Part shown: positions 10,888 through 28,628 of the stretch, piece after piece
How positions within the stretch are numbered: the first letter of the stretch is position 1
Layout of the letters: each line of letters opens with the position of its first letter
Virus record (IMG/VR): IMGVR_UViG_3300042486_001809
Span: 1 to 28,628 of that record
Length of the DNA: 28,628 nucleotides
Origin: a virus
Taxonomy: Duplodnaviria > Caudoviricetes
Direction: 5' to 3' (one strand)
Position numbers and translations under genes: made by a program
Notes under the pieces: model-generated
What the model saw: only the letters and a program-made list of their open reading frames with translations
Databases searched by the model: none
Told to the model about the DNA's origin: nothing

Positions 10888-10895
10888 TATTTATA
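10888..10895 (-). promoter_or_regulatory. T4-type late promoter TATAAATA
   Basis: Exact T4 late consensus about 20 nt before the ATG. The variant AATAAATA occurs at six other gene starts. Confidence 0.65.
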
Positions 10896-11234: not shown

Positions 11235-12790
11235 TATAAATTAAATCTTTTTTTGTATGCATTAAAGTTTTGAGATACTTCATTATCTGATAAAACTCTA
11301 TTGTATATTTTAACAATTGGAATTTTTCCAATAAACCATCGTTCACTACTTGTGGAAAAACCTTTTCCGAAAACTAAATTTGAAAATGCTCCATACCAAT
11401 TACTAAAAGAGGCTGTACTTACAAGAGCACCATTATAATAGGTCTTAAAGGTTGATCCGGTTCGGGTAATTGCAGTATAGTGGTATGGTGTGCCACTTAA
11501 CCCAGAAGAAACTACGGGTATTCCAGTATAACTACCGGATGAGTCTCCAACTATCCATACTAAATTTCCAGAAGAGTTTTGTTCAAGCCTCGGTCCAATA
11601 TTACTATAAGCTCCGCTATAAACTAACCAATTACAATCAATTGGATTTCTATAATTAGAAACGTTATCTGATTTAAAAACTATTTCAACGGTAAAATCAG
11701 AAATTGATCCTAAATTACCTACGCTACCGTAATCGTCGGTTCCATCAAATTGAAACATTCCAGTATTATCATAACTCATAACTGGTAAATCTATTGTTCG
11801 GTTACCTGTTGCATCAAGTAGAGCAGTCGTTGTACTTCTTGACCCTGCAACAAATGGAGTAGGGTGAGATTTTTGTTCTACTTGAATGTTTGCTATATCA
11901 TACTTATCAAGGGCTCCTGGCCAAAAGTAGGAAATTACATATTCATTAATTGGTGTAAATTGAAAAGACTGTCTGGTCCAAACACCAAGAGGACCATGTG
12001 TATAACTGTGACCCCAGCTAGTTGGACTAACACTTCCATAATTATAATTAGACATGCTTCCGCCAGCATTTGCAGTCTGTTGGTTTAAAGCTCTTGTCCA
12101 AAATGAATATGTATGAACTTGTCCTGGTACAACTACTGCGTCTGGCCCGTATGCCATTCCATCTGCGCTTTCTGGACGATGCGCATGTAGACGCATACAA
12201 TCAGTTTTTTGAGAAGGATATAGATCAAATCCTCCAGTGATTATTTCTTTAACAAGACCTGAATTTGGAAGGTGCGGTGCTCCCCACCATTTAGTAGGAA
12301 ATCCGCTGGCGCTTACTGAAACTCTTTGATCTAACCAAAAGGAATCGTGAACTTTATGACCACCGGTTGCTGGATTAATATAACCCTGATCCCCACCTTG
12401 TGAACCATTGTACGCATGTAGTGAAAACTGAGTATCTGAAATTTTCTTTGCAAAATAGTCTGTGCCTGCACTAACTCCACCTCCACTAGTTTCTGGTCGA
12501 ATTACATCAAATGAGTATATTCCATGCGAGCTAACTGTAGTAATTATATTATTGGATACGCTTGAAATTGCGGGAATATCCCAATAAACAGCACAGCCAT
12601 TATTTCCACAATACTTATTTGTATTATAAGTGGCCCAACCATTACCTAAGGTCGGATAGCTGTTTACTTGTGGTGACGGTATAGTATTTACAGTTGGTGC
12701 TCCTTTATAACTATTAAAAAAATCGGCAGAGTCAAATGCAAAAATTAACCCAGTCGAAACTTGTCCATTATATCCAATACGAATTGCCAT
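11234..12790 (-). CDS. LamG/concanavalin-A-like virion protein with inserted carbohydrate-binding-like domain
   Basis: GLIFAFD, FQFDGTDDY, FTVEIVFK, TYYNG, VKIYNRVLSDNEVSQNFNA. Confidence 0.85.
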   Translation of the reverse strand: MAIRIGYNGQVSTGLIFAFDSADFFNSYKGAPTVNTIPSPQVNSYPTLGNGWATYNTNKYCGNNGCAVYWDIPAISSVSNNIITTVSSHGIYSFDVIRPETSGGGVSAGTDYFAKKISDTQFSLHAYNGSQGGDQGYINPATGGHKVHDSFWLDQRVSVSASGFPTKWWGAPHLPNSGLVKEIITGGFDLYPSQKTDCMRLHAHRPESADGMAYGPDAVVVPGQVHTYSFWTRALNQQTANAGGSMSNYNYGSVSPTSWGHSYTHGPLGVWTRQSFQFTPINEYVISYFWPGALDKYDIANIQVEQKSHPTPFVAGSRSTTTALLDATGNRTIDLPVMSYDNTGMFQFDGTDDYGSVGNLGSISDFTVEIVFKSDNVSNYRNPIDCNWLVYSGAYSNIGPRLEQNSSGNLVWIVGDSSGSYTGIPVVSSGLSGTPYHYTAITRTGSTFKTYYNGALVSTASFSNWYGAFSNLVFGKGFSTSSERWFIGKIPIVKIYNRVLSDNEVSQNFNAYKKRFNL

Positions 12791-12803
12791 ATCTTAAATT
12801 ATT

Positions 12804-14024
12804 TTAACAAAGGTAACAACCCCTATTTTCATATCTACTTCGGGTTCTATTATAAATTTCTAATATTTCAGGCTGACCTAAAACTCGATTATATGCAAGA
12901 GCCATTGGAATTTCACCTAAATATTTAGAATGATATTCGCCGCCGATCATTGGCGCCGATCCTAAATAGGTTCCTCCATAAAATCCAGTATTTGCACTAG
13001 CTACTTGTGAACCATTTAAATATAATTTAAGTTGACCATCGGTTGATCGTGTACAAGCCAGCATATTCCAGCCAGTTGGAGTTCCACCCCCACCTAGGAG
13101 ATAGTCGGCAGATCCGGTATTATTACCAACCCATGCTGCAATTGAACCGTGGTAGTAACTCATTAGTTTAAGACCTGCTCGATAATCTGGTGAAGTACAA
13201 ATTAGGGTTCGGTGCGGAGCGCCTGTGTCTCCCCACCATTCAAACCATGAAATTAGAGTTTGATTTTGCGAAAGATTTGCGTTAGATATACCGCTTACCG
13301 TTAACCAATTATTTGTACCATCAAAATAGAGAGTGCCATCATTTAGATAACCAGCTCGGGTTAAATCTATTGTGCCAGTTCCGGTTACATCAAGTAAACC
13401 GCCAGTTATACTTCTTGATCCAAGCACCAATGGAGTTGCAAAATCTCTTTGTTCAAGCTGAAAACCAAAATATGCCAGTTTTTCACCAACAAAGTCTCCG
13501 GTATAGCTAGTCATATAGAGGCCATTTTCATTAGCTGGAGTAGTTACCGTAGCAGAAATTCTAATCCACTTATGCCGAGGCCAATTTAGGTAATTAGTAT
13601 CTCCATTATAGGCAAAGGGCGCAATAAACGTATTATTGACTGCAGTTCTAACATGCGGCTGTATTCCAATAGTGGTTCCGGTAAAATAAAAATAGATTGA
13701 GAATGTATAGACTGTACTTGGGCTTACTGGAACAATTGAGCTTCCTATATGCTGACTCCCAACTTCAGTTACGGTTGAACTAAAAATCTTAAGACCAGAC
13801 GTATCAACATTTGCGATTACCGGTTTAGCAATTGATGTGTCATTATCATTAAATGTGGTTGATCCACTGTTAGTCCACCAATTTGAGTTGGAGTTTAGGG
13901 AAGGATTTGACAAATATGCTAGGTTTGTAGTAGGTGCCCCTAAATATGAAGTATTTCTGTCATTTGTATCAAATGCAAAAATTAATCCATTTTCATTATA
14001 ATCTAATCCGCTTTTAATTGACAT
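12804..14024 (-). CDS. LamG/concanavalin-A-like virion protein with inserted carbohydrate-binding-like domain
   Basis: GLIFAFD, YTFSIYF...WIRIS...FQLEQ insert, FDGTNNW, KLYLNG, YNRVLG. Confidence 0.85.
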   Translation of the reverse strand: MSIKSGLDYNENGLIFAFDTNDRNTSYLGAPTTNLAYLSNPSLNSNSNWWTNSGSTTFNDNDTSIAKPVIANVDTSGLKIFSSTVTEVGSQHIGSSIVPVSPSTVYTFSIYFYFTGTTIGIQPHVRTAVNNTFIAPFAYNGDTNYLNWPRHKWIRISATVTTPANENGLYMTSYTGDFVGEKLAYFGFQLEQRDFATPLVLGSRSITGGLLDVTGTGTIDLTRAGYLNDGTLYFDGTNNWLTVSGISNANLSQNQTLISWFEWWGDTGAPHRTLICTSPDYRAGLKLMSYYHGSIAAWVGNNTGSADYLLGGGGTPTGWNMLACTRSTDGQLKLYLNGSQVASANTGFYGGTYLGSAPMIGGEYHSKYLGEIPMALAYNRVLGQPEILEIYNRTRSRYENRGCYLC

Positions 14025-14026
14025 AA

Positions 14027-14149
14027 TTATTCCTGTGCGGCAGAGTTTGCCTCGGCTTCAGAATAGTAAATACCAATTAGGTCAGCTCCTTCTAGAACAA
14101 ACCAACATGGAGTTCCATCTAAGTCAATTCCAGTTTCTACGTATTTCAT
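14027..14149 (-). CDS. 40-aa acidic protein missed by the ORF track (MKYVETGIDLDGTPCWFVLEGADLIGIYYSEAEANSAAQE)
   Basis: The ATG overlaps the upstream TGA (ATGA) and the TAA ends 2 nt before the next ATG, exactly filling the gap. Confidence 0.75.
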   Translation of the reverse strand: MKYVETGIDLDGTPCWFVLEGADLIGIYYSEAEANSAAQE

Positions 14150-14823
14150 CGACCGTGTCTATTTTTTTGTGCATTGTAATTTGCTAAAACTTCTTCACTG
14201 GATAGGGCGCTATTATAAACCCGTAATACAGAAATTCCACCAGAAAATTGACGGCCGTCTGCTTCCCATCCAACATTACAATCACTGTATACATAGCCAG
14301 CGGTTGCATAAGTTGAAACAGTATTAACCAAGGATCCATTTACATACTGCTTTAGAGTATTTGTACCTCGGTCCCATACTGAAGTAAGGTGGTGCCAAGC
14401 TTGTCTGTCCATGGTTACTCCAGGCTCGTGATATCCCTGATTTGTGGTTGCATACCAATAGTTACTTAACTGCTGGTTACCTTTATTCCAACTAAGATAC
14501 GCCCATCCCTGAAAAATACACCCACGGTCTCCTCCACTTAATTCATTAGCCTCTGGGTAAATCCAAGCCTCAAGCGTAAGTGAATTCATATATTGCGCAC
14601 TGCCGAATCTAATTACAAACCTGTCTCCAATATCATCTAAATAGAAACATTTGGCTCCGCCTACTGTAATATTACGAGGACTTCCGATAACATCTGCATA
14701 GAATCCATTTCCACTAATATCAGACCAAATTGCACCGGATCCAGGGTAACTATTAACGTCACCTGCATCCAGGGCTAGGAGTAAATTTCGGGTAGTTATT
14801 CTTGGATTATAGTGTAGAGCCAT
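14146..14823 (-). CDS. Single-domain LamG/concanavalin-A-like protein
   Basis: LLLALDAGDVNSYPGSG.WSDISGNG, TLEAWIYP, WHHL, YVNG, RVYNSALS. Confidence 0.9.
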   Translation of the reverse strand: MALHYNPRITTRNLLLALDAGDVNSYPGSGAIWSDISGNGFYADVIGSPRNITVGGAKCFYLDDIGDRFVIRFGSAQYMNSLTLEAWIYPEANELSGGDRGCIFQGWAYLSWNKGNQQLSNYWYATTNQGYHEPGVTMDRQAWHHLTSVWDRGTNTLKQYVNGSLVNTVSTYATAGYVYSDCNVGWEADGRQFSGGISVLRVYNSALSSEEVLANYNAQKNRHGR

Positions 14824-14901: not shown

Positions 14902-15906
14902 TTAAAGAATTGTTAGCAGCGCATAGGCAATCATTAATGAAATCCAAATGACTAGGGCCTTTAGATATGTTAAAAACCCAGTATGAAAATATTTTTGCCC
15001 AATTGGTAAACACTTGTGAGATGGAGAAATTAGGTATGCTGAATATTCAAGTGTAAAGAACAGCACAAAATAGTGCATGCCAAAGATACTTGTTAATAAA
15101 CTTACAATACTTGCGTATTTGGCCGAAGATCCCAATAGGAATGACGATAGAAACGCTACCATAGAGACTAGAATGATGCTCTGTGATGTGGAATAGGTTT
15201 TGATATAAGATTCAATTAGTGGATAATATGATGCGACTAGGTTACCTAAAATAATAACTAGCGCAACTATCCAAACAATCTCCCAATTGATATACGATAT
15301 AAGATTCTTCCAACTCTTTGAATACCAAACTAGATAAGTGGTAAATGCCGTAAAAATAGCAAAGTAGTGATCGCTAAAACAGCTTGCTAAGATTGCTGCA
15401 AAAAATGGTAGAACCACTAATGTGATATTTTTCCAGTTAACTGGTTCGTCATGCATAATTATATCAATTTCATCGTCCTTTAATGAAAGAATATAGTAAC
15501 TAATATAGAGACCACTAATAAGTAACAGAGGCCAAATATATGACATAAATTGCATATAAGTAAGACCCAACACTGCCATTGGAATAATTGTAGTTTTTTC
15601 CAAAGGCGACCATAGATAATAATGGTGAGTTGCTAAATAATCGATGATGCCAAATTTCTGTCTCTTTTTATCATTAACTGGTGCAATGCTATTTAGCATA
15701 CTCGCTGAGAGTGCAACTCTACCTGGAATGGGTAGGATTCCACCAAACAGTGAGACAAAAAAGACCACCATCTTTTTGGACTTAACTCGTTGGGTTAAGA
15801 CTCTAAAAATGTCCATCAGGTATCCCCGGTCCTTGAGGATACCTGTGATAAACATAATAAAAATTAAATAGACAAGAAATTCTTGTCCTTTTATTAAAAT
15901 CTCCAT
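14902..15906 (-). CDS. Multi-pass inner-membrane transporter, IT superfamily (DUF401/CitMHS-like)
   Basis: About 9-10 hydrophobic segments, with FGGILPIPGRVALSA, HHYYLWSPLE and ISPSHKCL. Confidence 0.8.
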   Translation of the reverse strand: MEILIKGQEFLVYLIFIMFITGILKDRGYLMDIFRVLTQRVKSKKMVVFFVSLFGGILPIPGRVALSASMLNSIAPVNDKKRQKFGIIDYLATHHYYLWSPLEKTTIIPMAVLGLTYMQFMSYIWPLLLISGLYISYYILSLKDDEIDIIMHDEPVNWKNITLVVLPFFAAILASCFSDHYFAIFTAFTTYLVWYSKSWKNLISYINWEIVWIVALVIILGNLVASYYPLIESYIKTYSTSQSIILVSMVAFLSSFLLGSSAKYASIVSLLTSIFGMHYFVLFFTLEYSAYLISPSHKCLPIGQKYFHTGFLTYLKALVIWISLMIAYALLTIL

Positions 15907-16865
15907 GCAAAAATGATTGTGCTACGTGATGCTTTTGATTCTTTTGTTAAACCGGGCATTACCTCAACACTGAGGTATGCGTGTCCATTGAAACGATATT
16001 GAAATAATGGTCCAAGATAAATCTCTTGACTACTACCTCCATAATCATTATAACGATACATACTACTTACACCGATTGTAACATCGTTATTAATAATGTG
16101 ACCATACGATGCAGTTGACGCGTATTCCCGTTCTTGTAATTCTTTAGTTGGGGCAATGTTACCCTCATAAATTAAATTTAATCCCCAAATGCCATTATTA
16201 CCAATTCTATCACCAAGTAATAATTTTGGTTCAATACCCATACGACCATCCAATAACTTATGTTCTAAATAAATGGTTGGGTTACCCCAAATCTTACCCC
16301 AATCGGCAAGTGCATAACGTATTTCCCATGAGAAACCTCTCCATTTGAATTCTTTACTACCGTCTTCACCATCATATACTGTGTGTGAATATAAGTCAAG
16401 TTGTAGTCGGTTACCTAAGCCAAATGTAAATTCATCACGCATTCTGACTTGAGCTGGACCGTTCCGACGGTCACGAATGTCAAACCATTTTTCATACATC
16501 ACTGAGCCCGGTGGATTCATGACATAGACTCTGGTCGATGGAAACATTCGCATAGTACTCCAAAGTGGTTGATTATAAGGACCAACCTTTGTTTGTAGCG
16601 GATATTTTTTCGCAGTAACAATAACTTCGGCGATCTCGGTTGGACCCATGATTGAGTCGCCTGGACCGGGCTTAATTATTGTGTCGCTAGTTTTTCTAGC
16701 TTCAGCAGAACCATTCTTAATTGCAGTATTGCTATACTGTGCCTGGGCTACAGTCGTAGTCAACATAACAAGTAATACAAGGATCCAACTCTTACTCCCT
16801 CTAACAAGCGCATTGAATGTTGAGAGAAAACGGGCCGCATTTGACCCAATTGAAGTTTTCTTCAT
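15894..16865 (-). CDS. Secreted outer-membrane beta-barrel-like protein
   Basis: Signal peptide ending AQA|Q, EVIVTA motif, alternating aromatic/hydrophobic strands, C-terminal IIFAWRF. Confidence 0.75.
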   Translation of the reverse strand: MKKTSIGSNAARFLSTFNALVRGSKSWILVLLVMLTTTVAQAQYSNTAIKNGSAEARKTSDTIIKPGPGDSIMGPTEIAEVIVTAKKYPLQTKVGPYNQPLWSTMRMFPSTRVYVMNPPGSVMYEKWFDIRDRRNGPAQVRMRDEFTFGLGNRLQLDLYSHTVYDGEDGSKEFKWRGFSWEIRYALADWGKIWGNPTIYLEHKLLDGRMGIEPKLLLGDRIGNNGIWGLNLIYEGNIAPTKELQEREYASTASYGHIINNDVTIGVSSMYRYNDYGGSSQEIYLGPLFQYRFNGHAYLSVEVMPGLTKESKASRSTIIFAWRF

Positions 16866-16959: not shown

Positions 16960-17211
16960 TTAAGGTTGGGTTGCTGCATTTTTTGCTTTATTGTGAAATA
17001 AGAGGGCATAGTACATAAAGGTATGAGTATAGATTCCATACTCTGGGGAACCAATATGAATTGCCCCATTTTCTCGTTCACAAATAAAGAATACAGTTGA
17101 ATTTACATCAACTATTCCAACAATTTTAAATCTGGAAACTGCTCCAATGTTGTAGTATGTGTCTAATTCATAGACAGCATCTTCGATTTGATATGTTTGT
17201 AAGTTTTGCAT
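16960..17211 (-). CDS. Hypothetical protein
   Basis: 83 aa, translationally coupled (TAATG) to the Hint-domain gene. Confidence 0.7.
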   Translation of the reverse strand: MQNLQTYQIEDAVYELDTYYNIGAVSRFKIVGIVDVNSTVFFICERENGAIHIGSPEYGIYTHTFMYYALLFHNKAKNAATQP

Positions 17212-18533
17212 TATACGATTCCTTCGTCTTTTCTATTATGTGATACAACTTCACCAATAACATAGGTGTGAGCTTGATCAACTTCAATTTGAACTACTTC
17301 CATCACTCCAATTGATTCAATAGATTCAATTTCGGCAAGTCCATTTACTGTTTGTACCTTAGCACCAACCCATAGTTCTGATAATGGAACAAATCCCATG
17401 CTTTCAGTTAAGAATTTATGATTGCTTGATACTTTTATTTCTTGGCCTCCAATTATAGTACGACTAACAATATTTGTTCCTGAGTTTGCTGAGGTCACCT
17501 GGTATGATCCCCATTCACCAGTTGTTTCGTGTTTAGTGTAAACATAATCTCCAACTTTAAGGTCTCCTGCCATCACCCAAGTATTAGGATTAATTAGAAT
17601 AGGCATATCTGGAGTAGGGCATTGGCTGGTTCCGCACACTTGGTTAAGGTCTCCATATCCACCATATGAAATACTAGTCCCACAAAATAGGTATTCGCCA
17701 TAACAGCAAGACCAGCCTTCGACTATATTTCCATCACAGTCACGGCCTGACCAGCTACCACTTCCATCTCCAAAGTAGACGTAACAATTTATGGATGGCT
17801 CTTGATATCCACATGTTGTAGAATTACTTTCAATTAGAGAAGAATAGGTTCCATTACAACCATTTGAATACGTATAGTAAAGATCATAGCCGGAACAATA
17901 TTGACTTAAATAGGTTCCATACCCAGGCGAACAACAACATCCACCACATGCAGTAGTACAGTCTGAATAAACTTGATCGTAAGTTCCACAGCTACCATTC
18001 GCGTATCGATAATAAAGTGCACAGCCTGAACAAAATTGACTCAGATAAGTTCCATATGCTGGGCATCCGGCGCTAGTTGTCATTGTAATTGTATTTGAAT
18101 ATCCAGAATAACCATTAGTTGAAGTACAAGTTATTCGCACTCTAACTTGGTATGCTGTATTTGAAGCAAGACCAGATACTGTTGAAGTTGTACTACACCC
18201 ACCGGTATTAGTACTCCAAGTAGATCCACCATTTGAACTATATTCAACGTGCATGGCTGAACAGTTTGTGTAACTTACATTAATAGTAAAGGAGCTTGAA
18301 GAAACTGAATTTGATGAAATGCTTGGAGCATTACAGCAGGCAAAGGAGTGGTTATAGCCTCGCCACTCAGACATTGCCGCAGAATTGGCTGAACTAGGAC
18401 GGCTCGGCGAACACGAGTTTATTGCAGCGTACGAACCATTTTCTGCTGAATCTAAACTGATTTGAGCATTAGATGAACGACCTAATTCTAAGTTAATAGC
18501 GGTCATTGAAACTGTGCCAGTTCCGATTGCCAT
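17211..18533 (-). CDS. Putative fibre-tip/adhesin protein: FN3 domain, Cys-rich repeats, C-terminal Hint domain
   Basis: FN3-like VSGLASNTAYQVRVR, two P.YGTYLSQ.CSG..LYY.Y.NG repeats, Hint blocks A, B, F and G. Confidence 0.85.
   Translation of the reverse strand: MAIGTGTVSMTAINLELGRSSNAQISLDSAENGSYAAINSCSPSRPSSANSAAMSEWRGYNHSFACCNAPSISSNSVSSSSFTINVSYTNCSAMHVEYSSNGGSTWSTNTGGCSTTSTVSGLASNTAYQVRVRITCTSTNGYSGYSNTITMTTSAGCPAYGTYLSQFCSGCALYYRYANGSCGTYDQVYSDCTTACGGCCCSPGYGTYLSQYCSGYDLYYTYSNGCNGTYSSLIESNSTTCGYQEPSINCYVYFGDGSGSWSGRDCDGNIVEGWSCCYGEYLFCGTSISYGGYGDLNQVCGTSQCPTPDMPILINPNTWVMAGDLKVGDYVYTKHETTGEWGSYQVTSANSGTNIVSRTIIGGQEIKVSSNHKFLTESMGFVPLSELWVGAKVQTVNGLAEIESIESIGVMEVVQIEVDQAHTYVIGEVVSHNRKDEGIV
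17235..17621 (-). other. Hint (intein-like/BIL) auto-processing domain, residues C305-N433
   Basis: CPTPDMPI (block A), DLKVGDYV, VSSNHKF (block B), VVQIEVDQAHTYVIGEVVSHN (blocks F/G). The +1 residue is Arg. Confidence 0.85.
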
Positions 18534-18534
18534 A

Positions 18535-20070
18535 TTATTCGCCTTTTAATTTTTTAACTTCAAATCTAAGTTCTTCGATTTGAAGTTGCTGTTCCTTAAT
18601 AGATTCAATTAAGAGAGGCACTAATTTATCATAGCTAACTGTTAAATATGATTCTCCACTCTTGGATCCAATTACTTGATTGTTTTCATTGAACTCTGTA
18701 TCAAATGGCGCAAGTGTAACAACTTCTGGTAAAACTGACTGTACCTCTTGTGCAGAAAGACCTACCTGAATTTTTTCGTCTTTATATCCAAATGACTTAG
18801 CTAAGTCGTTATTTACGTAATAGAAACCTGTTAACTGCTTAATTTTATCTAGTGCATTTTCAATAGTGCCGACTCTAGTTTTTAACCGTTCGTCAGAATA
18901 AAATGCAATGACATCGCCTTCAGCATATACCCAATTGTATGAATAAACATAATCATAGTTAGTTCGATTTAATCTAGAAGTACCATTTGGATCTAGGTAA
19001 TAACCAGAGTTATTTGAATCATAGAGGATTGTACAGTAAACATCACCACCAGTTCCTAAGTAAACATTTCCATGCCAAGTATTATGAAGATAAATTCCAG
19101 GTTTGCTTGTAACACTGTCCCATGCAACAGATCCTGCGCTACTTGCATATCCCGCATATCCTACATAACATGGAGCATGGTAGGTATCATTAAGATAACC
19201 ACGAAGAGACCAATATCCACTTACATCTGCACTCCAAGTAGTTTGAACGTTGTATGCAGAGTTATCTTCATTTCGGTAAAGTCTATATGGACCAGGTCTA
19301 GCGGCACTCGTCCACATACCTGTTTGACCAGTAATACCCGAAGCTGCGACGTTGGTTGCAGTAGCGGCATTACCCGAAATATTAGTTTGGTCGCCAGTGT
19401 TTGTTCCCGATAAGTTACTTCCGGTTATAGTACCGCCTACTGATAAATTATTAGAAACTCTAACATCTGAACTTCCGTTACCGACTGAGAAAAGTTCAGT
19501 TACCATAGTAGAATCATCATAGAATCTGATACCGCCATATCCTGTATTTGCTCCAATCTTAATACCAGTATGATAACCTATATGTAGATCTGGATAAGGA
19601 TGACTCCATCCTCCGCCACCTTGATAAATTGCATAGGAGTGATTACTTGTGTTACCAGAATCTCCACCGACTCCAGTAAATCGTAGAACTTTTAGAGTTC
19701 GGTCTTCATTATCTCTAAAATATGAAAAATTATTAATTTCTGTTTCTGTGTAGTATCGATCATCGTGGTTGTGTGATGGGAGAGATGTTAAATAGCCTGC
19801 ACTTGCATGGTTACCCCAATCATAAGCAGACTTCCAGTTTGCAGAAGTGCCGTGTGAAGACGTCGTAATTTCACCAGCATCATAAATGCCTGATCCATTT
19901 TTATACATGGCTCCATATAACCATTGTGTACTGCCGACATAAATACCACTTGGGTGCCAAGTTGCAGCACCAGTTCCGCCAACGTTTGCATTACCAGTAA
20001 AACCAGCGGCTGTCATATTGCCAGTTGAGTTAACTGTACCTGTGACACTAGTTGATAATAAATTTGCCAT
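18535..20070 (-). CDS. Tail fibre protein with C-terminal intramolecular chaperone (peptidase S74)
   Basis: YSDERLK, VGLSAQEVQSVLPEVV, YDKLVPLLIESIKEQQ, and a Gly/Ser/Thr-rich shaft. Confidence 0.92.
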   Translation of the reverse strand: MANLLSTSVTGTVNSTGNMTAAGFTGNANVGGTGAATWHPSGIYVGSTQWLYGAMYKNGSGIYDAGEITTSSHGTSANWKSAYDWGNHASAGYLTSLPSHNHDDRYYTETEINNFSYFRDNEDRTLKVLRFTGVGGDSGNTSNHSYAIYQGGGGWSHPYPDLHIGYHTGIKIGANTGYGGIRFYDDSTMVTELFSVGNGSSDVRVSNNLSVGGTITGSNLSGTNTGDQTNISGNAATATNVAASGITGQTGMWTSAARPGPYRLYRNEDNSAYNVQTTWSADVSGYWSLRGYLNDTYHAPCYVGYAGYASSAGSVAWDSVTSKPGIYLHNTWHGNVYLGTGGDVYCTILYDSNNSGYYLDPNGTSRLNRTNYDYVYSYNWVYAEGDVIAFYSDERLKTRVGTIENALDKIKQLTGFYYVNNDLAKSFGYKDEKIQVGLSAQEVQSVLPEVVTLAPFDTEFNENNQVIGSKSGESYLTVSYDKLVPLLIESIKEQQLQIEELRFEVKKLKGE

Positions 20071-20081
20071 TTCCTAAGAAG

Positions 20082-21734
20082 TTAATTTTTTGTAGCTGGT
20101 GCCAAGTCGTTGTAACTAGCTTTATGTTTATTTACCAATGCGATGAACACTCCGTTCCACCACATGTTTTTATCTTCAATATTATTCAGTATTTTTTTAT
20201 CATACTGAACAGTTAAGCCAGCTGATTCGATACCAGCAAGCGCACCATCGATTACACCATCCCAATTTGCATCATCAAATACTAAAATACACTCATCTGC
20301 AAAAGTTGATGCAAAATATTCAACCGCCAATTTAGTACTTTCATAAGAGTGGTCACCATCGTATAAGAAAAGATCAATATCCTTAATTGATTCTTTATTT
20401 ACATCAATGAAATCACAATTAAAGACCTTTATTTGATTTTCACCCTTATATGGCGAAATATTTTTAACAAAATCATCTTTTGTAACAGACATACCAATTT
20501 CTTCATTCTCGGCTGAGACGCCTTCTTTCCAATTGTCTACTGCATAGGCCCTGAGAGAATTACCGGCTAATACGCTCGAAAAGGTTCTACCACCGAGACA
20601 ACCGACTTCAAGATATGAGGTTGAAATTTTACCTAATTCATTTAGAAGTTTATCTACCCTTGGGCTAGATATACCGGGTACAGCTGTTTCAAAGCTAGAG
20701 TTAACGCTTGTTACTAATAGATTTGCAATTTGAGTAGCCTTTGAATTTAGACTGTCTGTTGCCACTCTGTCACAAAAATTACAGTTCCAACATTCAAATT
20801 TACAGGTCTTAATGATCTTTCTCCATTTACTCTCGACTTGCTCGTTTATACCTAGATTAATACTGTACAACTTCTCTTTACCCTCTGCATAATTGCGAAC
20901 AATTTCCATAGTCTCATAAATCTTCTTGACGTTTTCTCGGCCATGCATTTTAAAAATGTCAACTCCAAGTTCAAGAAATTCGTCCCAATCCTCTTTCCAT
21001 GCAGGAATATCTGCAGTTTTTAGCACGACTGCCGGATTAGTAAAATCCCATTTTGGGCAAGAAACTCGGCTAATTGCATTATTGAAATATTGACTATCTG
21101 TTGTTCTAGTATTATTGTAATGATAATGCTCCGCCATTACTGGACATTTACCTAAACAGCCTTCATTTGCTAAAAGAACCAGCTTAAATGGATTTTTTCT
21201 TTTTATTTTGGCAATTGTCTTTATTGTATCATGATCTCGCATTAGGGCTCTATCAATACAAACTGAGTTAAACCCACTGGTTACTACATTATAGACGTCG
21301 GTCGCTGTCTTCGTATCCATTAGGATGGAACTTCGTACCTCTAATTCTGGAAATTCCTTTTGAATTTGCCCAGTTAAGAGCCAATGATTAAATGGTAGTG
21401 TACATAGTCGAATGCCAGCCTCATACAATGGCCTAAATGACTCTATCCATAGGTCTAGATTTTCTTGAGTAGGTCTAACTGATATATTATTAAATGTTGC
21501 AGATGCAGTAATACCTGTCTTGTCTTGAATAAATTTTGCCATATCAATCATGTATTGCGCAGAATCATCTGCAACAAACACATCACCCATTGCATCTTGC
21601 GTAAATGGAGTAATTCTACAAGTAAAATATAGATCTGAGATATAGTCTTTATAGGTATCGCAGAACTGAACGAATTCTATAAATTGTGTCTCAGATAATT
21701 TAGGGTTAATTGGTATACTAAATATCTTCGCCAT
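20082..21734 (-). CDS. U32-family (Fe-S, TIM-barrel) protein fused to class I SAM methyltransferase (Methyltransf_24-like); likely start MAKIF
   Basis: U32 part: ISDLYF, ATFNN, IDRALMRD, LANEGCLGKCP, SCPKW, GVDIFKMHGRE, CKFECWNCNFC. MTase part: YLEVGCLGGRT, AVDNW, IDLFLYDGDHSYE, LVFDDANW. Confidence 0.85.
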   Translation of the reverse strand: MAKIFSIPINPKLSETQFIEFVQFCDTYKDYISDLYFTCRITPFTQDAMGDVFVADDSAQYMIDMAKFIQDKTGITASATFNNISVRPTQENLDLWIESFRPLYEAGIRLCTLPFNHWLLTGQIQKEFPELEVRSSILMDTKTATDVYNVVTSGFNSVCIDRALMRDHDTIKTIAKIKRKNPFKLVLLANEGCLGKCPVMAEHYHYNNTRTTDSQYFNNAISRVSCPKWDFTNPAVVLKTADIPAWKEDWDEFLELGVDIFKMHGRENVKKIYETMEIVRNYAEGKEKLYSINLGINEQVESKWRKIIKTCKFECWNCNFCDRVATDSLNSKATQIANLLVTSVNSSFETAVPGISSPRVDKLLNELGKISTSYLEVGCLGGRTFSSVLAGNSLRAYAVDNWKEGVSAENEEIGMSVTKDDFVKNISPYKGENQIKVFNCDFIDVNKESIKDIDLFLYDGDHSYESTKLAVEYFASTFADECILVFDDANWDGVIDGALAGIESAGLTVQYDKKILNNIEDKNMWWNGVFIALVNKHKASYNDLAPATKN

Positions 21735-22431
21735 CAATCTTTTCATTATTACCTGCTAATAATTTCAGCAGCTCAGTGTTTTCAAACAAGCCAGTAAAGT
21801 TGCTATTTAACAAATTAGTATTTGTACTAATTGCTTCTTCTAGTTTATTAATACCAGATGTTAACTTTTTAGAATTAAGTAAAGCTGAACCAATTGTAAA
21901 AGCTTGATCGTTTGGTGTCATCATTGCAATTGAATCAAGGTTACCTGCTCCAATGCGACCAGTCGTTACCATATCGACGCTAGCCTGCTTTGCCATACGA
22001 TAAATCCAATATTCTCTTTCTAACTCTTCGTCATGTTGAGTATACTTTTGCAAGTCCTCAGCGGTTGGCACAATTTCTACCACTAATTTAGAAAATTGAT
22101 CAAGTTCTTCTTCAACGATTCTCAGCTTTTTTGCATATACTGATAAATCATAATTATATTGATCGATATCTAATAAGATTAATTCCTTTTCAAGATCACG
22201 GCTTTCATTTTCTAAATCGCGCTGCTTAATCTTAATATTTACTTCTGTTTTCTTAGAATCACGAATTATTTGTTTTTTAGCAGCAAGCCGAGTTTCTATT
22301 TCAAGCAGGGCTTGCCTAACTCGACGATAATCTGTAACTTGTGAGTTTACTACAAAATACCGACTTTGAAAATCGCTCATGCTCCAGCCACCATGGCTTT
22401 CCGCTAATTGTAAAACATCGTTTTTATTCAT
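21718..22431 (-). CDS. Coiled-coil hypothetical protein (likely start MNKNDV)
   Basis: Heptad-rich middle flanked by SDFQSRYFVV...YRRVRQALLE and YWIYRMAKQA..D..TTGRIGAGN. Overlaps the U32 gene. Confidence 0.8.
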   Translation of the reverse strand: MNKNDVLQLAESHGGWSMSDFQSRYFVVNSQVTDYRRVRQALLEIETRLAAKKQIIRDSKKTEVNIKIKQRDLENESRDLEKELILLDIDQYNYDLSVYAKKLRIVEEELDQFSKLVVEIVPTAEDLQKYTQHDEELEREYWIYRMAKQASVDMVTTGRIGAGNLDSIAMMTPNDQAFTIGSALLNSKKLTSGINKLEEAISTNTNLLNSNFTGLFENTELLKLLAGNNEKIDGEDI

Positions 22432-22450
22432 ATAGTTTTGTTTAATTTGT

Positions 22451-22993
22451 TTAGAATCCTTTACTGTAATCAACTGGTACAATACGTAGTCCTCTTTCAT
22501 CCAGCAGACCCATTTCTTGAGCTTGATATACGGGCATCTCTACACCAAGTAGATCTTCTCTAAGAATATTTAGATCCCAAATAGTAGTAGCTGCATCAAC
22601 TGAGGTAATCAAACTTTCTTCACCAGTTCTATCTTCTCTTCGATTGAATTCATCTACGATTCTACGTTTAGTAATCTTTTTCATTAGACTAAGTGTAACT
22701 GACCTTGTGTGATCGGTATGATAGACTTTAGTTTTAGAACCACCTTCTTCATCGGGTTCCAAACCTTCTACCACTGAATAGGCTTTACGATAATCTCTAG
22801 AGATACCATAGAACTTAGAACCGGTGATAGCTTCATCTTCGGTAATTTCTTCTTTACTAACATCTAGCGCAAGAAGTGCAGATTCTGCCTCAACCGTAAC
22901 CGAGAAAATACCGTATGAATCAAGCCAACCAATCGAAGTCATTCCATTAATTTGAGGAACTGATTTATAAAATCTTACAATAAAATGTTTCAT
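22451..22993 (-). CDS. Hypothetical protein
   Basis: 180-aa ORF with the AATAAATA motif upstream. Confidence 0.8.
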   Translation of the reverse strand: MKHFIVRFYKSVPQINGMTSIGWLDSYGIFSVTVEAESALLALDVSKEEITEDEAITGSKFYGISRDYRKAYSVVEGLEPDEEGGSKTKVYHTDHTRSVTLSLMKKITKRRIVDEFNRREDRTGEESLITSVDAATTIWDLNILREDLLGVEMPVYQAQEMGLLDERGLRIVPVDYSKGF

Positions 22994-23019
22994 AGTTTTT
23001 GAATTTTAGTTATAAAAAA

Positions 23020-23027
23020 TATTTATT
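23020..23027 (-). promoter_or_regulatory. Late-promoter-like AATAAATA upstream of the 180-aa/coiled-coil/U32 genes
   Basis: Recurrent motif overlapping the upstream stop codon. Confidence 0.5.
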
Positions 23028-24063
23028 AATATCCAACAAATACGGCAGATCCCGTAGCGCATGATCCTGAGGAACATCCATCGTGACCTTTTGGTGCAGT
23101 ATCACTTCCCATAGCTACTGTCGTGTCAGTTAGATAATTTACTTTTTCTGTATCGTTATTTTGGCCAAGAGGACCTCCATCATATGCGCCAAGCATGTAA
23201 CCCCAGTTCTGACCAATTTGCCAATTTTCTTCGCCATTATTTTTAGGTCTAGTAATTGTAGCAAGGTTTGAACCAGTTGCTTCGCTAAACTTAAAAAGAT
23301 TAATACTGCCTGGATAAGAGCCGGTACTGCCATAGCCATGTCCATGTTTGCTAGATAGCCCCTTCGGCTGACCATCAGTTGCCCAGCTCATTCCACCAGT
23401 TGCCCATGTTTCTGTTACCCAAGTAAATGAAGAGCCTGCTCCTTGAGAGATCCAGGCTTTATATTCACCAAACAGTGCACCAAGTCCACCGCTAGTACCA
23501 CCGGATAATGGCGATGCTGGAGCAGTGCCTGCTGAAAACATAATATCTGTTGTAAAGTTGTGCCTATCAACGGCAGTCGTACCGCCGCCAACAATGTATG
23601 CTGAAGTTAATGACGGAGTCATTAATGCTTCACAGTCACTTCGTGTACTCTTTAAATACCTAGCAGCATCTAGTGAAAACATGGTTTCGGTAGTCATACT
23701 CATAGATTCTACAATGGTACCCGATCCTCCAACCGATCCTGTACTAGGATAGATATAACTATTATAATCGCTAAATCCTCCACCGACATAACTACTATTA
23801 TAGACAAGTTTATCACCTAAGTTAGTTGTCATGTCTGTCGCGTGGATTGTTTTATTTACGTTTCTCCATGGTGAGCTACTCTTATATCCACCATTCATAT
23901 AGCCCTTTGTATAGATGCTCCTATACAGGAAGCTATTAGCAAAAGGATTAGTTGTTTGTGTATCACCAGTGGTAGTCCATGAACCGTCCCATAAGTATAT
24001 TATGCCAGTTGGTGCAACAAACTGAGATCCTGTAGTTGGTGATGATGGAAATGAAAATGCCAT
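23026..24063 (-). CDS. Gly-rich beta-propeller-like (Kelch-like) virion protein, paralog 2 (likely start MAFSFP)
   Basis: N-terminal FPSSP..G.QF....G..Y.WDGSW module, with periodic GY/AY-x-x-GG blades. Confidence 0.75.
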   Translation of the reverse strand: MAFSFPSSPTTGSQFVAPTGIIYLWDGSWTTTGDTQTTNPFANSFLYRSIYTKGYMNGGYKSSSPWRNVNKTIHATDMTTNLGDKLVYNSSYVGGGFSDYNSYIYPSTGSVGGSGTIVESMSMTTETMFSLDAARYLKSTRSDCEALMTPSLTSAYIVGGGTTAVDRHNFTTDIMFSAGTAPASPLSGGTSGGLGALFGEYKAWISQGAGSSFTWVTETWATGGMSWATDGQPKGLSSKHGHGYGSTGSYPGSINLFKFSEATGSNLATITRPKNNGEENWQIGQNWGYMLGAYDGGPLGQNNDTEKVNYLTDTTVAMGSDTAPKGHDGCSSGSCATGSAVFVGY

Positions 24064-24065
24064 AG

Positions 24066-25100
24066 TTAAAGTCCTCCTATAATTAATGCACTTGCTGATG
24101 CGCATGCACCGGACGAACAGCCATCATGACCTTTCGGTTGAGAGTCTGAGCCTAGTACAGTGTATACATCGGTAATTGAGTGCACCTTGTATGTGTTATT
24201 ATTTTGAGCGCCATTATAGTGACCTATACAATATCCCCAGTTTTGACCAGTTTGATAGTTCTCCTCACCAGAATTATCAAAGTTTAAATCTGTTCTGATT
24301 TGAGCGCCAGTTGTATCATCTAATTTGTATGCACCAGTTACGATATTACCGCCATTCTTAACATAGGCATGACCGTGTTTTGTTGGTAGAGCTTTACCCC
24401 AACCATCAGTTGCAACAGTTGTTCCACCGGATGCCCAAGTTTCTGTGGCAAAAGTAAAGTTTCCACCTGATCCAGTTTTCCAAATCCAACCTTTAAACTC
24501 CCCTTGCCAAGCTGCTACGTTACCATATGCGTCGCCGACAGTTGGTCCAGCTGGAGCAGATCCTAGTACATACATTATTTCAGTAACATAGTTATGTTTA
24601 TCAGTAGCAGTCGATCCACCCGCAGTAATGTAAGCCATAGTTAGAGTTGAATTCAGTATACAGCCGACATCGTCTCGGGTAGTTTTAGTATTCCAATTAG
24701 AATCATGTGTACGTTTTACTTCACTACTCATATTAAAAGAAGACGTATGTGTACTGGCTCCAGAAAATGAATCTTGAAGTCCATAAATGTATGCATAATA
24801 ATCACTATAACCGCCGTCTACATACGCGCCACCATAATCTAAATGATCACCCAAATTTGTAGTAATATCAGTAGAGTGTACTGTTCGATTAGCATTCTTC
24901 CATGGTGATGCATTCTTATAACCACCAAACATATAGCCTCTAGTATAGATTGATCTAAACTTAAATGGCTTTTCCACAAATGGATTAGGTGAAGTTGTGT
25001 CACCTTTAGTTGTCCAAGAACCATCCCAGATATAAAGTCTACCAGTTGATGCTGGAAATTGATCGCCTAATGCTGGAGAAGAAGGAAAGTCTATTGCCAT
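24066..25100 (-). CDS. Gly-rich beta-propeller-like (Kelch-like) virion protein, paralog 1 (likely start MAIDFP)
   Basis: Colinear with the neighbour: RSIYT.GYM.GGYK..SPW.N.N, GEEN.Q.GQNWGY, PKGHDGCSSG.CA. Confidence 0.75.
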   Translation of the reverse strand: MAIDFPSSPALGDQFPASTGRLYIWDGSWTTKGDTTSPNPFVEKPFKFRSIYTRGYMFGGYKNASPWKNANRTVHSTDITTNLGDHLDYGGAYVDGGYSDYYAYIYGLQDSFSGASTHTSSFNMSSEVKRTHDSNWNTKTTRDDVGCILNSTLTMAYITAGGSTATDKHNYVTEIMYVLGSAPAGPTVGDAYGNVAAWQGEFKGWIWKTGSGGNFTFATETWASGGTTVATDGWGKALPTKHGHAYVKNGGNIVTGAYKLDDTTGAQIRTDLNFDNSGEENYQTGQNWGYCIGHYNGAQNNNTYKVHSITDVYTVLGSDSQPKGHDGCSSGACASASALIIGGL

Positions 25101-25101
25101 C

Positions 25102-28100
25102 TTATAGATTATCAAGTTTTTTAGTTAGGCTATTTACCATATCTGTTAGTGCATTAATCTGAGCTTGTTGCTCCTTAATTGTTTCAACTAAAACCGCAGT
25201 TACTCTAGAATAAGATACTGTCTTGATTCCTTCGCCTGTTTCTGTAACTAGATCTGGGATAATTGCCTCAACTTCTTGTGCAATAAAACCAACTTCTTTC
25301 ATATTTGGTGTGGTTTTCTTATTAAAAGATACACCATTCAGCTTCATTATTTTATCCAAAGAATTCTCAAGTGGAAGAATGTTTTCTTTCAGCGAGATAT
25401 CTGAAGTCTCAGTAAGAACACCTTGAATAAGAGTGTTACCTACCACAGTAAGAGTTTGTCTAACTGTTACATCGCCATTAATTGAACCACCGGCTTTGGA
25501 ATAGTAAAGCGACATATCAGGAACTGGTGTAGCATCAACCCAAGCACTACCGTAATATACTTTAAGTTTACCGGTATCGGATTCCCACCATAATTTACCA
25601 GCGGCTCCTGCTGGAGGAGAGTCCTGAATAGTAACGGCGGCTCCACCAAGACCCAAGTCATTTGTAAATTGAGATAAGGCAGTAGGTCTTCCTGAAACGT
25701 TTGTCCAAGCAACAGAACCAGCAGAAGCAGCATAGTTTACTGAGAAATTTGATGGATTGTAAACATACATGTTTGTACCATCGGTTCCACCCCATAACCA
25801 AGTAGGCTGTCCACTTTGTCCAGACCAATAGAAATTTATATCCCCGCCGCTTGCATTTCTAGGATAGGCTCGGCCCGAAGATGTAATATAAGCAGAGTCG
25901 TTTGTAAATCTAGAAATGTTCATGTTAAACAAATCAGTAGCGTAGTCTGCTCTATACGCGGTGTTTACCAATACAGCAGTAGAATCTGTTCTACCAACTG
26001 CCCATCCTCCTAGGTGCAAATATGCACCATAATCATTTTCAACCATTTGATCAACACCACTAATACTAGTAAGTGTTAATCTTCCAGTCATTGTATCGCC
26101 AGATGCATTTATAAATCTTGAGTCAGACTCAGATTCTGTGTAATATCGGTCATCGTGGTTATGCGAAGCTGCTGCATATAGTCCAGCATGGTTACCCCAA
26201 CCGTATGCGGTATTCCAATTAGACGAGCTTGCAATTTTATTATCAGCAATCGATACACCTACCCATCTACCAGAAGAATCGATTACTTGGGTCGTATCAT
26301 ACACTCCAGGTATTGATCCATATTCAATTACACCAACATAATATCCATCACTTGAGTTAACATGTCCATCATATGCATTAAGGTGTCGAGATTGTAAAAA
26401 ACCACCAGTTAAGTTATCGCCATCTGCTCCAAATCTCTGGCCTCCTCCTACATATTTACCATTAATAGTTGGATTATTGTCTGCATACGACCAAGCGGGT
26501 CCGTCTCCATCTGGATTAATAGGTACATAAACTCCATCATGATTGTGAGAGGGTAATGATGTTAAGAATCCGCCATAGTTACCTAAGTCGTTTGTAAACT
26601 GCGACAAAGCAGTTGGCCTACCAGTTACTCCTGTCCATGCTACGTTAGTAGCAGTTGCGGCGTTACCGCTAATGTTTGTTTGGTCTCCTGTGTTTGTACC
26701 AGAAGAACTTCCACTAAAGTTAGTAGCACTTATTTGACCATATACTTGAACATTATAGTTATTATCCATTCTTAATCCCCAGTTACCGCCAGAATTTAAG
26801 AAACCAATTTCATTGGATGTATTAGCATAAACATAACCTCTTATTGAACTTACGTGACCGCCTGTATAAAATCTAATTGCAGACACACTAGTCGTAGATG
26901 AAGCATCCCAATAACCATTTGTGTTTGACGACCAGTGTTGAGTTGTTACCTGGTTATAGAGACCTTCATTGCTGTTATTATTTCGGAACCAACTATTATT
27001 GTAAATATTCGTAAAGGTTGGTGCAGATGAAGTTAGGAGAGCTTGGTTTAGATAACTAGATAACCAAGTTCCTCTAGTTCCAAAGTAGATATCACCCTCT
27101 GCGCCAAAATTACCGTTTGTCCAAGTTCCAGAGTTAGCTGAATAAAATCTGTAAGTTTGACCTCCTAAGTAGAGAGAATCATCAAATCTAGCCGAACCTC
27201 CACTATAAACCATTTTATTTCCATGTACTCTTAGGTAAGTAGCATCTTCCATGAACCAACCGCCGCCCCAACCAAATGCAAGTTTTTCATCCCTAAGTAC
27301 AGTAGCAGTTCCACGACCAAACACAAGCGCATCGTTGGCTCCTAATAGTTGAATTGATCCATTTACAAATAGTCTATTATTAGTTGGTGATGTTTGATCG
27401 GCGGCTGTATAAGAAAAGTCAGTTGTTCCAAATCCAACCCGGCCGTCTTGACCTACATAGATTGCATTTGTTCCAAACTTACCAATTTGTACAATATTGT
27501 TTGCAAATACTTCGAGTACAGGTAAACCTGCAAGGGTATTTACGCTATATAGTGAATCGGTTAGATCATCAGTTACAGTAAATAATCGACCGTTAACTCC
27601 ATTTACTGCAAATAATTCTTGTCCACTTGTTACTCCGCTAATTGCTAACGGTCCAGTCATTGTATCTCCGCTTACATTAACGTAAAGTGAGTCTGCTGTG
27701 CCTTGTGATATTCCTCCACTTGGAAGAGTAACCGAGTTACCTCCGCTAATTGTAAGGGTCGATCCGCTAATACTTAGAGTTTGGCCGTCAGTATTTGTAT
27801 CTGTATCAATATCATTAAATGTAGCAGTTAAGGTTGAACCGTCACCTTGAGTTAAGGTTAATGTTTTTGTACCAGTGCCACTAAATGAAATTGCAGTAGG
27901 TCTCTTATTATAAGCAGCATCCCAATTTGATTTGTTATAACCTGTAATTGCAGTTGCACCACTAAAGAAATTATTAACCTCACTTTCAGTGTAATATCTG
28001 TCATCATGGTTATGGCTCGGCAAAGACGTTAAGTAACCTTGAGAAGTTACCCAAGGTCTAGTTGCTAAAATATCGCCATTCCAAGTAGCAGTACCTTGAG

Positions 28101-28628
28101 TACTTAATCGAATTTCACCACTTCCATTGTGTTGAATATAGATTGCGCCGCTATTAGTATGAATACCACCGACATCAGTTGCTCCTCTAAATGCATGAAT
28201 TAACCAGGTTCCCTCTGGGTTATCTACAACAATACTTTCATTTGACGCTGGGGCTTTTGAAATTCCTAATCTAGCATTAATTTGCAAATTACCAGTCATA
28301 GTATCACCAGTAGTATTAACCCATACATCAGATACAGAGGTTAAGTAACCTTGACTTTGTACCCATGATTGAGTTGCAAGTAAATTACCTGCCGCATATG
28401 GAACATATTTAAAATATGCAACATTGGCCGTTGTTATTTCAAGAGCAACCGATGTAGGTTCATAGATATCGCCATATGCAATTTTAAAGCTATCTGTATT
28501 ATTGTTATTGGTCATTCCCATTGACCACATCGGAACTCCAGTATAGTCCCATGCAGTACCCTGAAAAACATTCATTCCAGTAGTAAACATTAGGGTTGCT
28601 TGATTACCAGAAGCTTGTCGATTAATGA
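25102..28628 (-). CDS. Long tail fibre protein with C-terminal S74 chaperone, 5'-truncated by window edge
   Basis: TSDISLKENI, VGFIAQEVEAIIPDLV, YSRVTAVLVETIKEQQ and GDTMTG repeats. The frame stays open upstream of 28590 (...INRQASGNQATLMF). Confidence 0.92.
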   Translation of the reverse strand, partial: INRQASGNQATLMFTTGMNVFQGTAWDYTGVPMWSMGMTNNNNTDSFKIAYGDIYEPTSVALEITTANVAYFKYVPYAAGNLLATQSWVQSQGYLTSVSDVWVNTTGDTMTGNLQINARLGISKAPASNESIVVDNPEGTWLIHAFRGATDVGGIHTNSGAIYIQHNGSGEIRLSTQGTATWNGDILATRPWVTSQGYLTSLPSHNHDDRYYTESEVNNFFSGATAITGYNKSNWDAAYNKRPTAISFSGTGTKTLTLTQGDGSTLTATFNDIDTDTNTDGQTLSISGSTLTISGGNSVTLPSGGISQGTADSLYVNVSGDTMTGPLAISGVTSGQELFAVNGVNGRLFTVTDDLTDSLYSVNTLAGLPVLEVFANNIVQIGKFGTNAIYVGQDGRVGFGTTDFSYTAADQTSPTNNRLFVNGSIQLLGANDALVFGRGTATVLRDEKLAFGWGGGWFMEDATYLRVHGNKMVYSGGSARFDDSLYLGGQTYRFYSANSGTWTNGNFGAEGDIYFGTRGTWLSSYLNQALLTSSAPTFTNIYNNSWFRNNNSNEGLYNQVTTQHWSSNTNGYWDASSTTSVSAIRFYTGGHVSSIRGYVYANTSNEIGFLNSGGNWGLRMDNNYNVQVYGQISATNFSGSSSGTNTGDQTNISGNAATATNVAWTGVTGRPTALSQFTNDLGNYGGFLTSLPSHNHDGVYVPINPDGDGPAWSYADNNPTINGKYVGGGQRFGADGDNLTGGFLQSRHLNAYDGHVNSSDGYYVGVIEYGSIPGVYDTTQVIDSSGRWVGVSIADNKIASSSNWNTAYGWGNHAGLYAAASHNHDDRYYTESESDSRFINASGDTMTGRLTLTSISGVDQMVENDYGAYLHLGGWAVGRTDSTAVLVNTAYRADYATDLFNMNISRFTNDSAYITSSGRAYPRNASGGDINFYWSGQSGQPTWLWGGTDGTNMYVYNPSNFSVNYAASAGSVAWTNVSGRPTALSQFTNDLGLGGAAVTIQDSPPAGAAGKLWWESDTGKLKVYYGSAWVDATPVPDMSLYYSKAGGSINGDVTVRQTLTVVGNTLIQGVLTETSDISLKENILPLENSLDKIMKLNGVSFNKKTTPNMKEVGFIAQEVEAIIPDLVTETGEGIKTVSYSRVTAVLVETIKEQQAQINALTDMVNSLTKKLDNL

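Follow-up and report, generated by a model that had tools for sequence, protein, structure and literature searches.

The 28.6-kb phage sequence IMGVR_UViG_3300042486_001809 (Caudoviricetes; positions 1 to 28,628, the whole of which we call the window) contains five minus-strand open reading frames (ORFs) packed head to tail between two fibre genes that bear S74 chaperone domains. We found that this cassette is a conserved and widespread phage module of four families, namely a propeller-like protein, a 180-amino acid (aa) protein, a coiled-coil protein and a U32-like enzyme. The organisation of the module appears to be new, while the enzyme taken alone is a variant of a known fold. We tentatively propose, at a probability that falls somewhat short of even, that the module serves late assembly of the fibre tip, its tailoring enzyme being exchangeable and metal import optional. 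The window represents the late region of a myovirus, with terminase, baseplate wedge, tail tube, PhoH and a sigma-70 factor of its own, and an IMG/VR contig matches it at 100%. The cassette and its flanks are as follows, with E denoting E-values throughout.

25102..28590, minus strand: upstream long tail fibre with S74 chaperone, continuing past the window edge
24066..25100, minus strand: propeller A, 344 aa from ATG, with a short N-terminal attachment piece and six Kelch-like repeats; likely fibre-tip head
23026..24063, minus strand: propeller B, 345 aa, paralogue of propeller A (51% identical); phrog_1417, E 8e-64
23020..23026, minus strand: ATAAATA, likely late promoter core
22451..22993, minus strand: 180-aa protein, short form of the T4-GC352 family; phrog_1604, E 4e-15; likely tail-fibre assembly chaperone
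21718..22431, minus strand: coiled-coil protein, 237 aa, a long helical hairpin with a small helical head; phrog_1409, E 2e-57
20082..21746, minus strand: enzyme, 554 aa, a U32-fold Cys-rich domain (~5-330) fused to a class I O-methyltransferase (~350-541)
18535..20070, minus strand: downstream fibre with S74 chaperone (Pfam and PHROG matches)

An earlier note, made from the sequence alone, had described five co-oriented, tightly packed genes between two S74 fibres, and both the ORF map and the Peptidase_S74 matches, above cut-off in both flanking genes (E 1e-15 and 2e-12), agree with it. The reported overlap of the coiled-coil and enzyme genes is also present, at 29 nucleotides (nt), or 17 nt when counted from the second in-frame ATG of the enzyme gene at 21734. 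The five-gene unit that the note proposed has to be redrawn: its genes are real and kept together, but the unit consists of four families plus two accessory membrane genes at 14902-16865, which had been missed.

Conservation of the module across phages

Linkage was assessed in IMG/VR and metagenome loci retrieved with different query families, and the counts refer to best-scoring, related and redundant loci rather than independent events. We kept 80 of 114 confirmed loci for the U32 query, 80 of 539 for the coiled coil, 74 (from the best 80 of 602) for the propeller, 80 of 563 for the metagenome set and 80 of 588 for the permease. The 80 U32 loci from IMG/VR included the coiled coil in 75, the 180-aa family in 72 and the propeller in 70, and the coiled-coil loci from the same database included the 180-aa family and U32 in 79 each and the propeller in 73. 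Around the propeller, the other three families were found at 74, 73 and 73 of the 74 IMG/VR loci (U32 at 73). The lone locus missing U32 in the coiled-coil set and the lone one in the propeller set were both at a contig end. In metagenomes, the methyltransferase was present at 76 of 80 loci, the coiled coil at 72, the propeller at 61 and the 180-aa family at 43. Eleven more distant loci encoded U32 in ten cases, and the remaining locus stops inside the coiled coil. The block persists through gene-order shuffles and duplication, with two complete, divergent cassette copies in tandem, the whole unit being duplicated, at four loci (L074, L075, L082 and L083). Chance clustering of the families was rejected, given that linkage was recovered from four starting families. 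The neighbourhood search suggested in the earlier note, run in IMG/VR, returned co-occurring families (70-79 of 74-80 loci from three query families), and the dedicated module that it postulated was recovered, as the families stay together and in fibre regions.

Across 50,697 INPHARED records, the enzyme matched 126 and the coiled coil and propeller 123 each, with the same organism tallies, these matches being mostly redundant cyanophage isolates; the short 180-aa form of the window had only six matches. Cyanophage clusters T4-GC351-354 (PHROGs 1417, 1604, 1409, 1458 and 14035) comprise the same genes in the same order as the window. The cassette corresponds to T4-GC351-354 in P-SSM4 and P-HM2, with identical order in S-CAM4, while in S-ShM2 T4-GC351-354 are present and the enzyme gene lies 6 kb away. 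GC353 and GC354 were found in five genomes and listed as hypothetical (Sullivan et al., 2010; PMC3037559); T4-GC351-354 were catalogued as "hypothetical" or "sericin-like", and the available part of that paper states neither a function nor module status. All four core families are PHROGs of unknown function. The module is also carried by phiKZ-like jumbo phages, and the Ralstonia jumbo phages RP12 and RP31 encode a divergent propeller-like gene, a 158-aa gene, the coiled coil, a U32 domain without methyltransferase and the permease. Plasmids had no match to the U32 domain or the coiled coil, and a GTDB scan yielded four loci, representing one phage-like contig with the coiled coil, two U32-only loci and one fragment. 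We found no account of the cassette or module in the literature searched, which did not extend to subscription papers and bioRxiv supplements, and the accessible text of PMC12801897 contains nothing on the cassette genes; this is in line with the earlier note, which knew of no characterised system with such an organisation.

Propellers as likely fibre-tip domains

Propeller A, which corresponds to T4-GC351, matched phrog_1417 (E 4e-90). The propellers have six GG-Y/W Kelch-like repeats, read from the alignment only, and invariant residues Y61, W67, H75, Y93, K236, E279, E280 and Q299-N301; the family had no Pfam or PDB sequence match. The name "propeller", taken over from the earlier note, is consistent with this six-repeat pattern, and it rests on the repeats and not on a fold search. 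The propeller domain was C-terminal in 382 of 391 relatives, 27 of which carry extensions of at least 250 aa, and two domains form the ends of fibres whose open frames span at least 2,160 and 2,404 aa. Additionally, 118 of 288 short propeller N-termini bear a module also found in the upstream fibre of the window, residues 998-1019 of which match the N-terminal module of propeller orthologues (E 1.4e-5 among 13 window proteins). The propellers thus behave like fibre-tip domains and are likely fibre-tip heads.

Likely partners of the propellers

The 180-aa protein lacks an internal helical segment of ~57 aa found in long family members. One of four long relatives scanned had weak matches to phrog_29076 "tail protein" (E 9e-5) and phrog_2624 "tail assembly chaperone" (E 0.011); the window protein itself matched no chaperone family in Pfam or PHROG scans, and no Pfam family was common to members. 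Tail fibres are known to be paired with assembly chaperones such as Tfa and T4 gp38. As in those pairs, a small protein is encoded here directly behind a fibre-tip gene, with weak PHROG tail-protein matches, while the window module adds a Kelch-like tip, a second helical helper, an enzyme and a transport pair.

The coiled-coil protein has many relatives, which form 1,283 clusters at 50% identity. Its AlphaFold model (predicted local distance difference test score, pLDDT, 87.8) had no PDB or Atlas match, and a structural look-alike in PaBG (E 0.08) was not confirmed by profile search. PDB sequence searches with the alignments of all four families returned nothing significant. In the complete siphovirus genome MW202657.1, the coiled coil is encoded behind a Kelch-like gene, both lying between DUF2460 and the baseplate-hub gene; the coiled-coil gene (8308-8961 of locus L421) is unannotated and part of a tail-tip operon, and no relatives of this siphovirus coiled coil were found in IMG/VR. 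In S-SKS1, the coiled coil is flanked by Kelch genes, followed by a sulfotransferase and a 2-oxoglutarate oxygenase; its neighbour matches Kelch_3, a match that does not demonstrate kinship with the window propeller family. Neither the complete MW202657.1 genome nor the S-SKS1 record had a U32 match, while two positive controls matched. Conversely, two bacterial metagenome-assembled genomes (MAGs) with U32-only relatives, both incomplete, had no coiled coil. Given that it is kept beside Kelch genes without U32 and is absent from U32-only MAGs, the coiled coil seems to track the propeller and not the enzyme, and its role as an obligate enzyme subunit was rejected. The coiled-coil and 180-aa proteins therefore look like partners of the propellers rather than of the enzyme, contrary to the partnership with the enzyme envisaged at first. 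A complex prediction of propeller A with both proteins scored 0.00, which gives no verdict and is uninformative either way.

Fold, motifs and relatives of the enzyme

The enzyme matched phrog_1458 (E 8e-133), and its AlphaFold model has two confidently predicted domains (pLDDT 90.8). The N-terminal domain has the (beta/alpha)8 barrel of PDB 5D88, the U32 protein Mk0906, which Foldseek retrieved at rank 19 (E 2e-6; template modelling (TM) score 0.65 by target length), behind two-domain pyruvate kinases that superposed poorly (root-mean-square deviation ~24). The C-terminal domain has a class I methyltransferase fold, with a Rossmann fold, motif I and acidic residues; it matched Methyltransf_24 (PF13578; E 2e-9, 39 bits against a cut-off of 26.3) and, best among O-methyltransferases, the structure 3dul (TM 0.60 by target length). 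Invariant residues were G382, G386, D404, D463, D491, D492 and N494 in the methyltransferase, and E195, C197, C201, H207, C230, C315, C319, C322 and C325 in the U32-like domain, so that the Cys/Glu/His and Asp motifs are intact. The motifs ExCxGxC and CxFxCWxCxxC were present in all 277 distinct relatives, a set retrieved in part with patterns from the U32-like domain itself. The enzyme profile also reached bacterial U32-like proteins (E 1e-14 to 1e-5) in 13 of 400 other genomes, all from one phylum. Neither the window enzyme nor its relatives matched Peptidase_U32 in Pfam or NCBIfam; the U32 label of the earlier note stands on fold and profile, without a family match.

The U32 iron-sulfur (Fe-S) oxidases UbiU/UbiV, TrhP and RlhA share with Mk0906 and the window enzyme a TIM-barrel fold. 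In RlhA, E161 is the conserved Glu ahead of the first Cys (PMC5727448, available part); the invariant E195 of the window enzyme, two residues before C197 and followed by further cysteines, may be its counterpart. The window enzyme differs from these oxidases in having KMHGR instead of the usual KIEGR (which is seen in canonical neighbours), in its extra four-Cys motif, and in being phage-encoded and tied to fibre genes. The enzyme likely operates in the manner of an Fe-S U32 enzyme, but its classification as TrhP, RlhA or UbiU/V is not warranted.

These non-canonical ligands (ExCxGxC, one further Cys, a His and a separate four-Cys motif; 277/277) could also indicate that the U32-fold domain inserts a metal or cluster, or serves as a maturation protease, during tip assembly, with the methyltransferase as an optional add-on. 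Loss of the methyltransferase in some loci, the invariant His/Cys motifs of the permease, the HxHD motifs of the window fibres (three and one) and reports of some U32 proteins as collagenases all fit such a role. Those protease claims come without a mechanism in the accessible part of the source (PMC5727448), and the methyltransferase, encoded in at least 236 of 259 loci with invariant Asp motifs, implies a new acceptor group to methylate, making this reading distinctly improbable.

The bacterial relatives have settings of their own. At six loci (L242-L245, L251 and L254), the closest U32-like proteins of bacteria have molybdoenzyme-like subunits or a canonical U32 gene as neighbours, which were named by reading their sequences. 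In a Syntrophaceae MAG (L087, 1-7238), two tandem U32-only relatives occur with a third, short TIM-barrel-like gene and genes for GNAT, TauE and sulfate adenylyltransferase, and in a Desulfocapsa MAG (L088, 839-1999) the gene for a U32-only relative is flanked by those for an RTX-repeat protein and a type I secretion ATPase. The slot between an RTX protein and its type I exporter often holds a modifying enzyme.

In Bacillus subtilis, TrhP1/TrhP2 and TrmR (YrrM) convert tRNA U34 to 5-methoxyuridine (mo5U), likewise coupling a U32 protein to an O-methyltransferase. The window fusion could produce this or a similar base in tRNA or rRNA, its fibre location being incidental: the two-step logic is the same, and the sole PDB sequence match of the enzyme profile was YrrM, at a non-significant E of 0.17. 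The window enzyme differs in being a single fusion with a methyltransferase dispensable in some loci, in its structural rather than translational context, and in having DDAN in register with the DN metal motif of YrrM. With no TrhP or RlhA family match and only that YrrM hit, orthology to TrhP and TrmR was not found. Moreover, no accessory RNA-binding domain was apparent within the 554 aa, and the linkage to fibre-tip and helper genes is near-complete through gene-order shuffles. The RNA target that the earlier note offered as an alternative consequently receives little support, and we regard it as very improbable.

Variation in the enzyme slot

The enzyme slot is exchanged among related loci. 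Of 259 distinct coiled-coil sequences, 192 were accompanied by a fused U32-methyltransferase, 44 by split genes, 19 by U32 only or a cut gene, and four by none. A radical SAM gene often occurs in split loci and was added in 57 of the 80 permease loci. Three of the four loci without U32 encode a Trp_halogenase-family gene and an Asp/Asn hydroxylase amid otherwise complete propeller, helper and transport genes, where the U32 enzyme has likely, though not provenly, been replaced.

The qhp operon of quinohemoprotein amine dehydrogenase is a protein-cofactor maturation operon. There, too, the gene for a propeller protein is accompanied by those for a radical SAM protein and an enzyme that hydroxylates aromatic groups, a likeness that is an analogy only: the halogenase-like protein matched QhpG solely at the FAD (flavin adenine dinucleotide)-binding start (E 3e-5, 23 bits against a cut-off of 240), which does not show homology.

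Promoter-like motif and likely late expression

ATAAATA at 23020-23026 lies 27 nt upstream of the 180-aa gene. It is a variant of TATAAATA, of which the sole exact match in the window is at 10888, and it resembles the T4 late promoter. The motif was rarer than chance (8 seen against 17.4 expected), yet 7 of the 8 matches lay 7-27 nt upstream of a gene start on the coding strand (binomial P ~1e-11, or ~1e-6 allowing five-fold AT enrichment), and it is therefore likely a late promoter, with the block likely late-expressed. The earlier claim of a late-type motif before the last three genes holds as to position and likely timing, while the motif is a variant and not an exact TATAAATA. In related loci, ATAAATA preceded 65 of 316 propeller genes, 10 of 196 180-aa-family genes and 8 of 228 coiled-coil genes, and none of 293 U32, U32-methyltransferase or methyltransferase genes. 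The seven matches ahead of genes, on both strands, are at 331, 7121, 7698, 9905, 10888, 14850 and 23020, and the phage sigma-70 gene is at 831-1475.

Predicted membrane transport pair

Two accessory genes lie 3-5 kb downstream of the cassette.

15894..16865, minus strand: accessory predicted outer-membrane beta-barrel, with Atlas look-alikes
14902..15906, minus strand: accessory DUF401-like inner-membrane permease (DUF401, E 1e-7) with invariant His/Cys motifs

Among the 80 permease loci, U32, coiled coil and 180-aa family were present at 68 each, the propeller at 67 and the barrel at 52, and four long permease loci had no cassette. All 12 INPHARED permease records belong to U32-carrying phages; in S-CAM4 the two genes are 58 kb apart. 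The invariant H94, H95, H297 and C299 form His-His and His-x-Cys motifs, which suggests metal transport. Atlas look-alikes of the barrel were Phenol_MetA_deg, DUF6662 and HAEPLYID (score 0.95-0.96). The position of the barrel gene shifts within the cassette; at L097 (6236-7858) permease and barrel share one 540-aa frame, an odd topology if real. A TonB-dependent receptor can replace the barrel (PF00593 above cut-off in L438 and L439), and 13 of the 80 permease loci encode a similar 600-aa protein. TonB-dependent-receptor-like genes adjoin the permease at L438 (9737-11467), L439 (9695-11425) and L339 (8197-9999). In the window, three laminin-G (lectin-like) genes lie in tandem behind the permease (11234-14823, minus strand), and directly behind the second fibre is the gene for a 440-aa protein (17211-18533, minus strand) that has a weak fn3 match, Cys-rich repeats and, at its C-terminus, a Hint-like domain with His-Asn as its last residues; none of these matches reached its Pfam cut-off.

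The transport pair brings in the main rival to our proposal, in which a small molecule serving as metal chelator, signal or cofactor would be made or modified by the enzyme, moved by the outer-membrane receptor and the permease, and bound in the conserved propeller pocket. The pair travels with the cassette, its barrel slot can hold a TonB-dependent receptor, and radical SAM, U32 and methyltransferase read like a biosynthetic series. Furthermore, polar propeller residues that are invariant across very different phages suit a constant ligand, and bacterial copies adjoin sulfate-activation genes. On the other hand, the loci had no recurrent precursor-supply, nonribosomal peptide synthetase or precursor-peptide gene, the transport pair was near only 12-28 of the 74-80 loci found with core genes, and the two structural helpers staying with the enzyme are left unexplained. 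We therefore consider a small-molecule product unlikely. Phage-encoded inner- and outer-membrane proteins and likely late timing could also point to alteration of a host surface receptor, blocking rival phages or preventing progeny from sticking to debris. Given that the enzyme N-terminus has no signal-peptide-like stretch and that the module spans phages of very different hosts with differing surfaces, this is the least probable of the explanations considered.

Proposed function

In the fibre-tip assembly that we tentatively favour, the two propellers would form the tip heads, and the 180-aa and coiled-coil proteins would fold or mount them. The U32-fold enzyme, with putative Fe-S clusters, is predicted to carry out oxygen-independent hydroxylation of an aromatic ring, and its methyltransferase half would then methylate the hydroxylated ring, a sequence of steps suggested by the fold, the motifs and the non-significant YrrM match. 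The ring so altered may belong to a propeller Tyr or Trp residue, or to a ligand bound in the conserved propeller pocket. Uptake through the permease and outer-membrane channel would supply a metal, iron being the simplest candidate, to the enzyme clusters or the fibres.

Several observations weigh against this proposal. The U32 oxidase cluster motif is CX6CX15CX3C (PMC11574389, available part), and it occurred in none of the 277 distinct relatives, so that the hydroxylase activity proposed here is extrapolated. The substrates of characterised U32 enzymes are quinone precursors and RNA bases rather than proteins (PMC11574389), and the accessible parts of PMC11574389 and PMC5727448 describe no U32 enzyme that modifies a protein. 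A methoxy product is not universal, given that the methyltransferase is absent in RP12-type loci and L434, and the halogenase-type records are 8-25% complete, so that U32 may lie elsewhere in those genomes. Hypervariable regions of this kind often encode oxygenases and halogenases, so that part of the slot variation may be ordinary turnover. The permease and TonB-dependent receptor are no less compatible with a small molecule than with a protein target. Finally, ORF135-139, including the propeller-like ORF139, were absent from the RP31 virion proteome (32 proteins from gel bands), which did contain ORF133 and ORF140 from close to the two ends of the block (PMC5468394, available part). This proteome, the sole direct evidence, is negative, although low-copy fibre tips might be missed in a gel-band list of such shallow depth. 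The proteomics column is blank for T4-GC351-354 in the supplement rows available from PMC3037559, and no virion mass spectrometry of S-CAM4 was found in the literature searched.

A bolder version of the fibre-tip proposal is a long shot: iron import through a TonB receptor or barrel and the His/Cys permease, combined with a modified aromatic metal-binding residue on the propellers, would create a siderophore-like tip whose chemistry could be switched by enzyme swap, and the enzyme would be the first with a U32 fold to modify a protein.

Given that these genes have been present as hypothetical clusters in cultured cyanophages since 2010, the module is open to immediate testing. Even under the rival explanations, the literature searched describes no characterised equivalent of a phage-encoded transport pair linked with an Fe-S-type enzyme and fibre genes. 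If fibre-tip tailoring is the correct interpretation, receptor-binding tips would carry enzyme-made modifications that are invisible in sequence alone, and the U32 fold would gain a new ligand set and substrate class.

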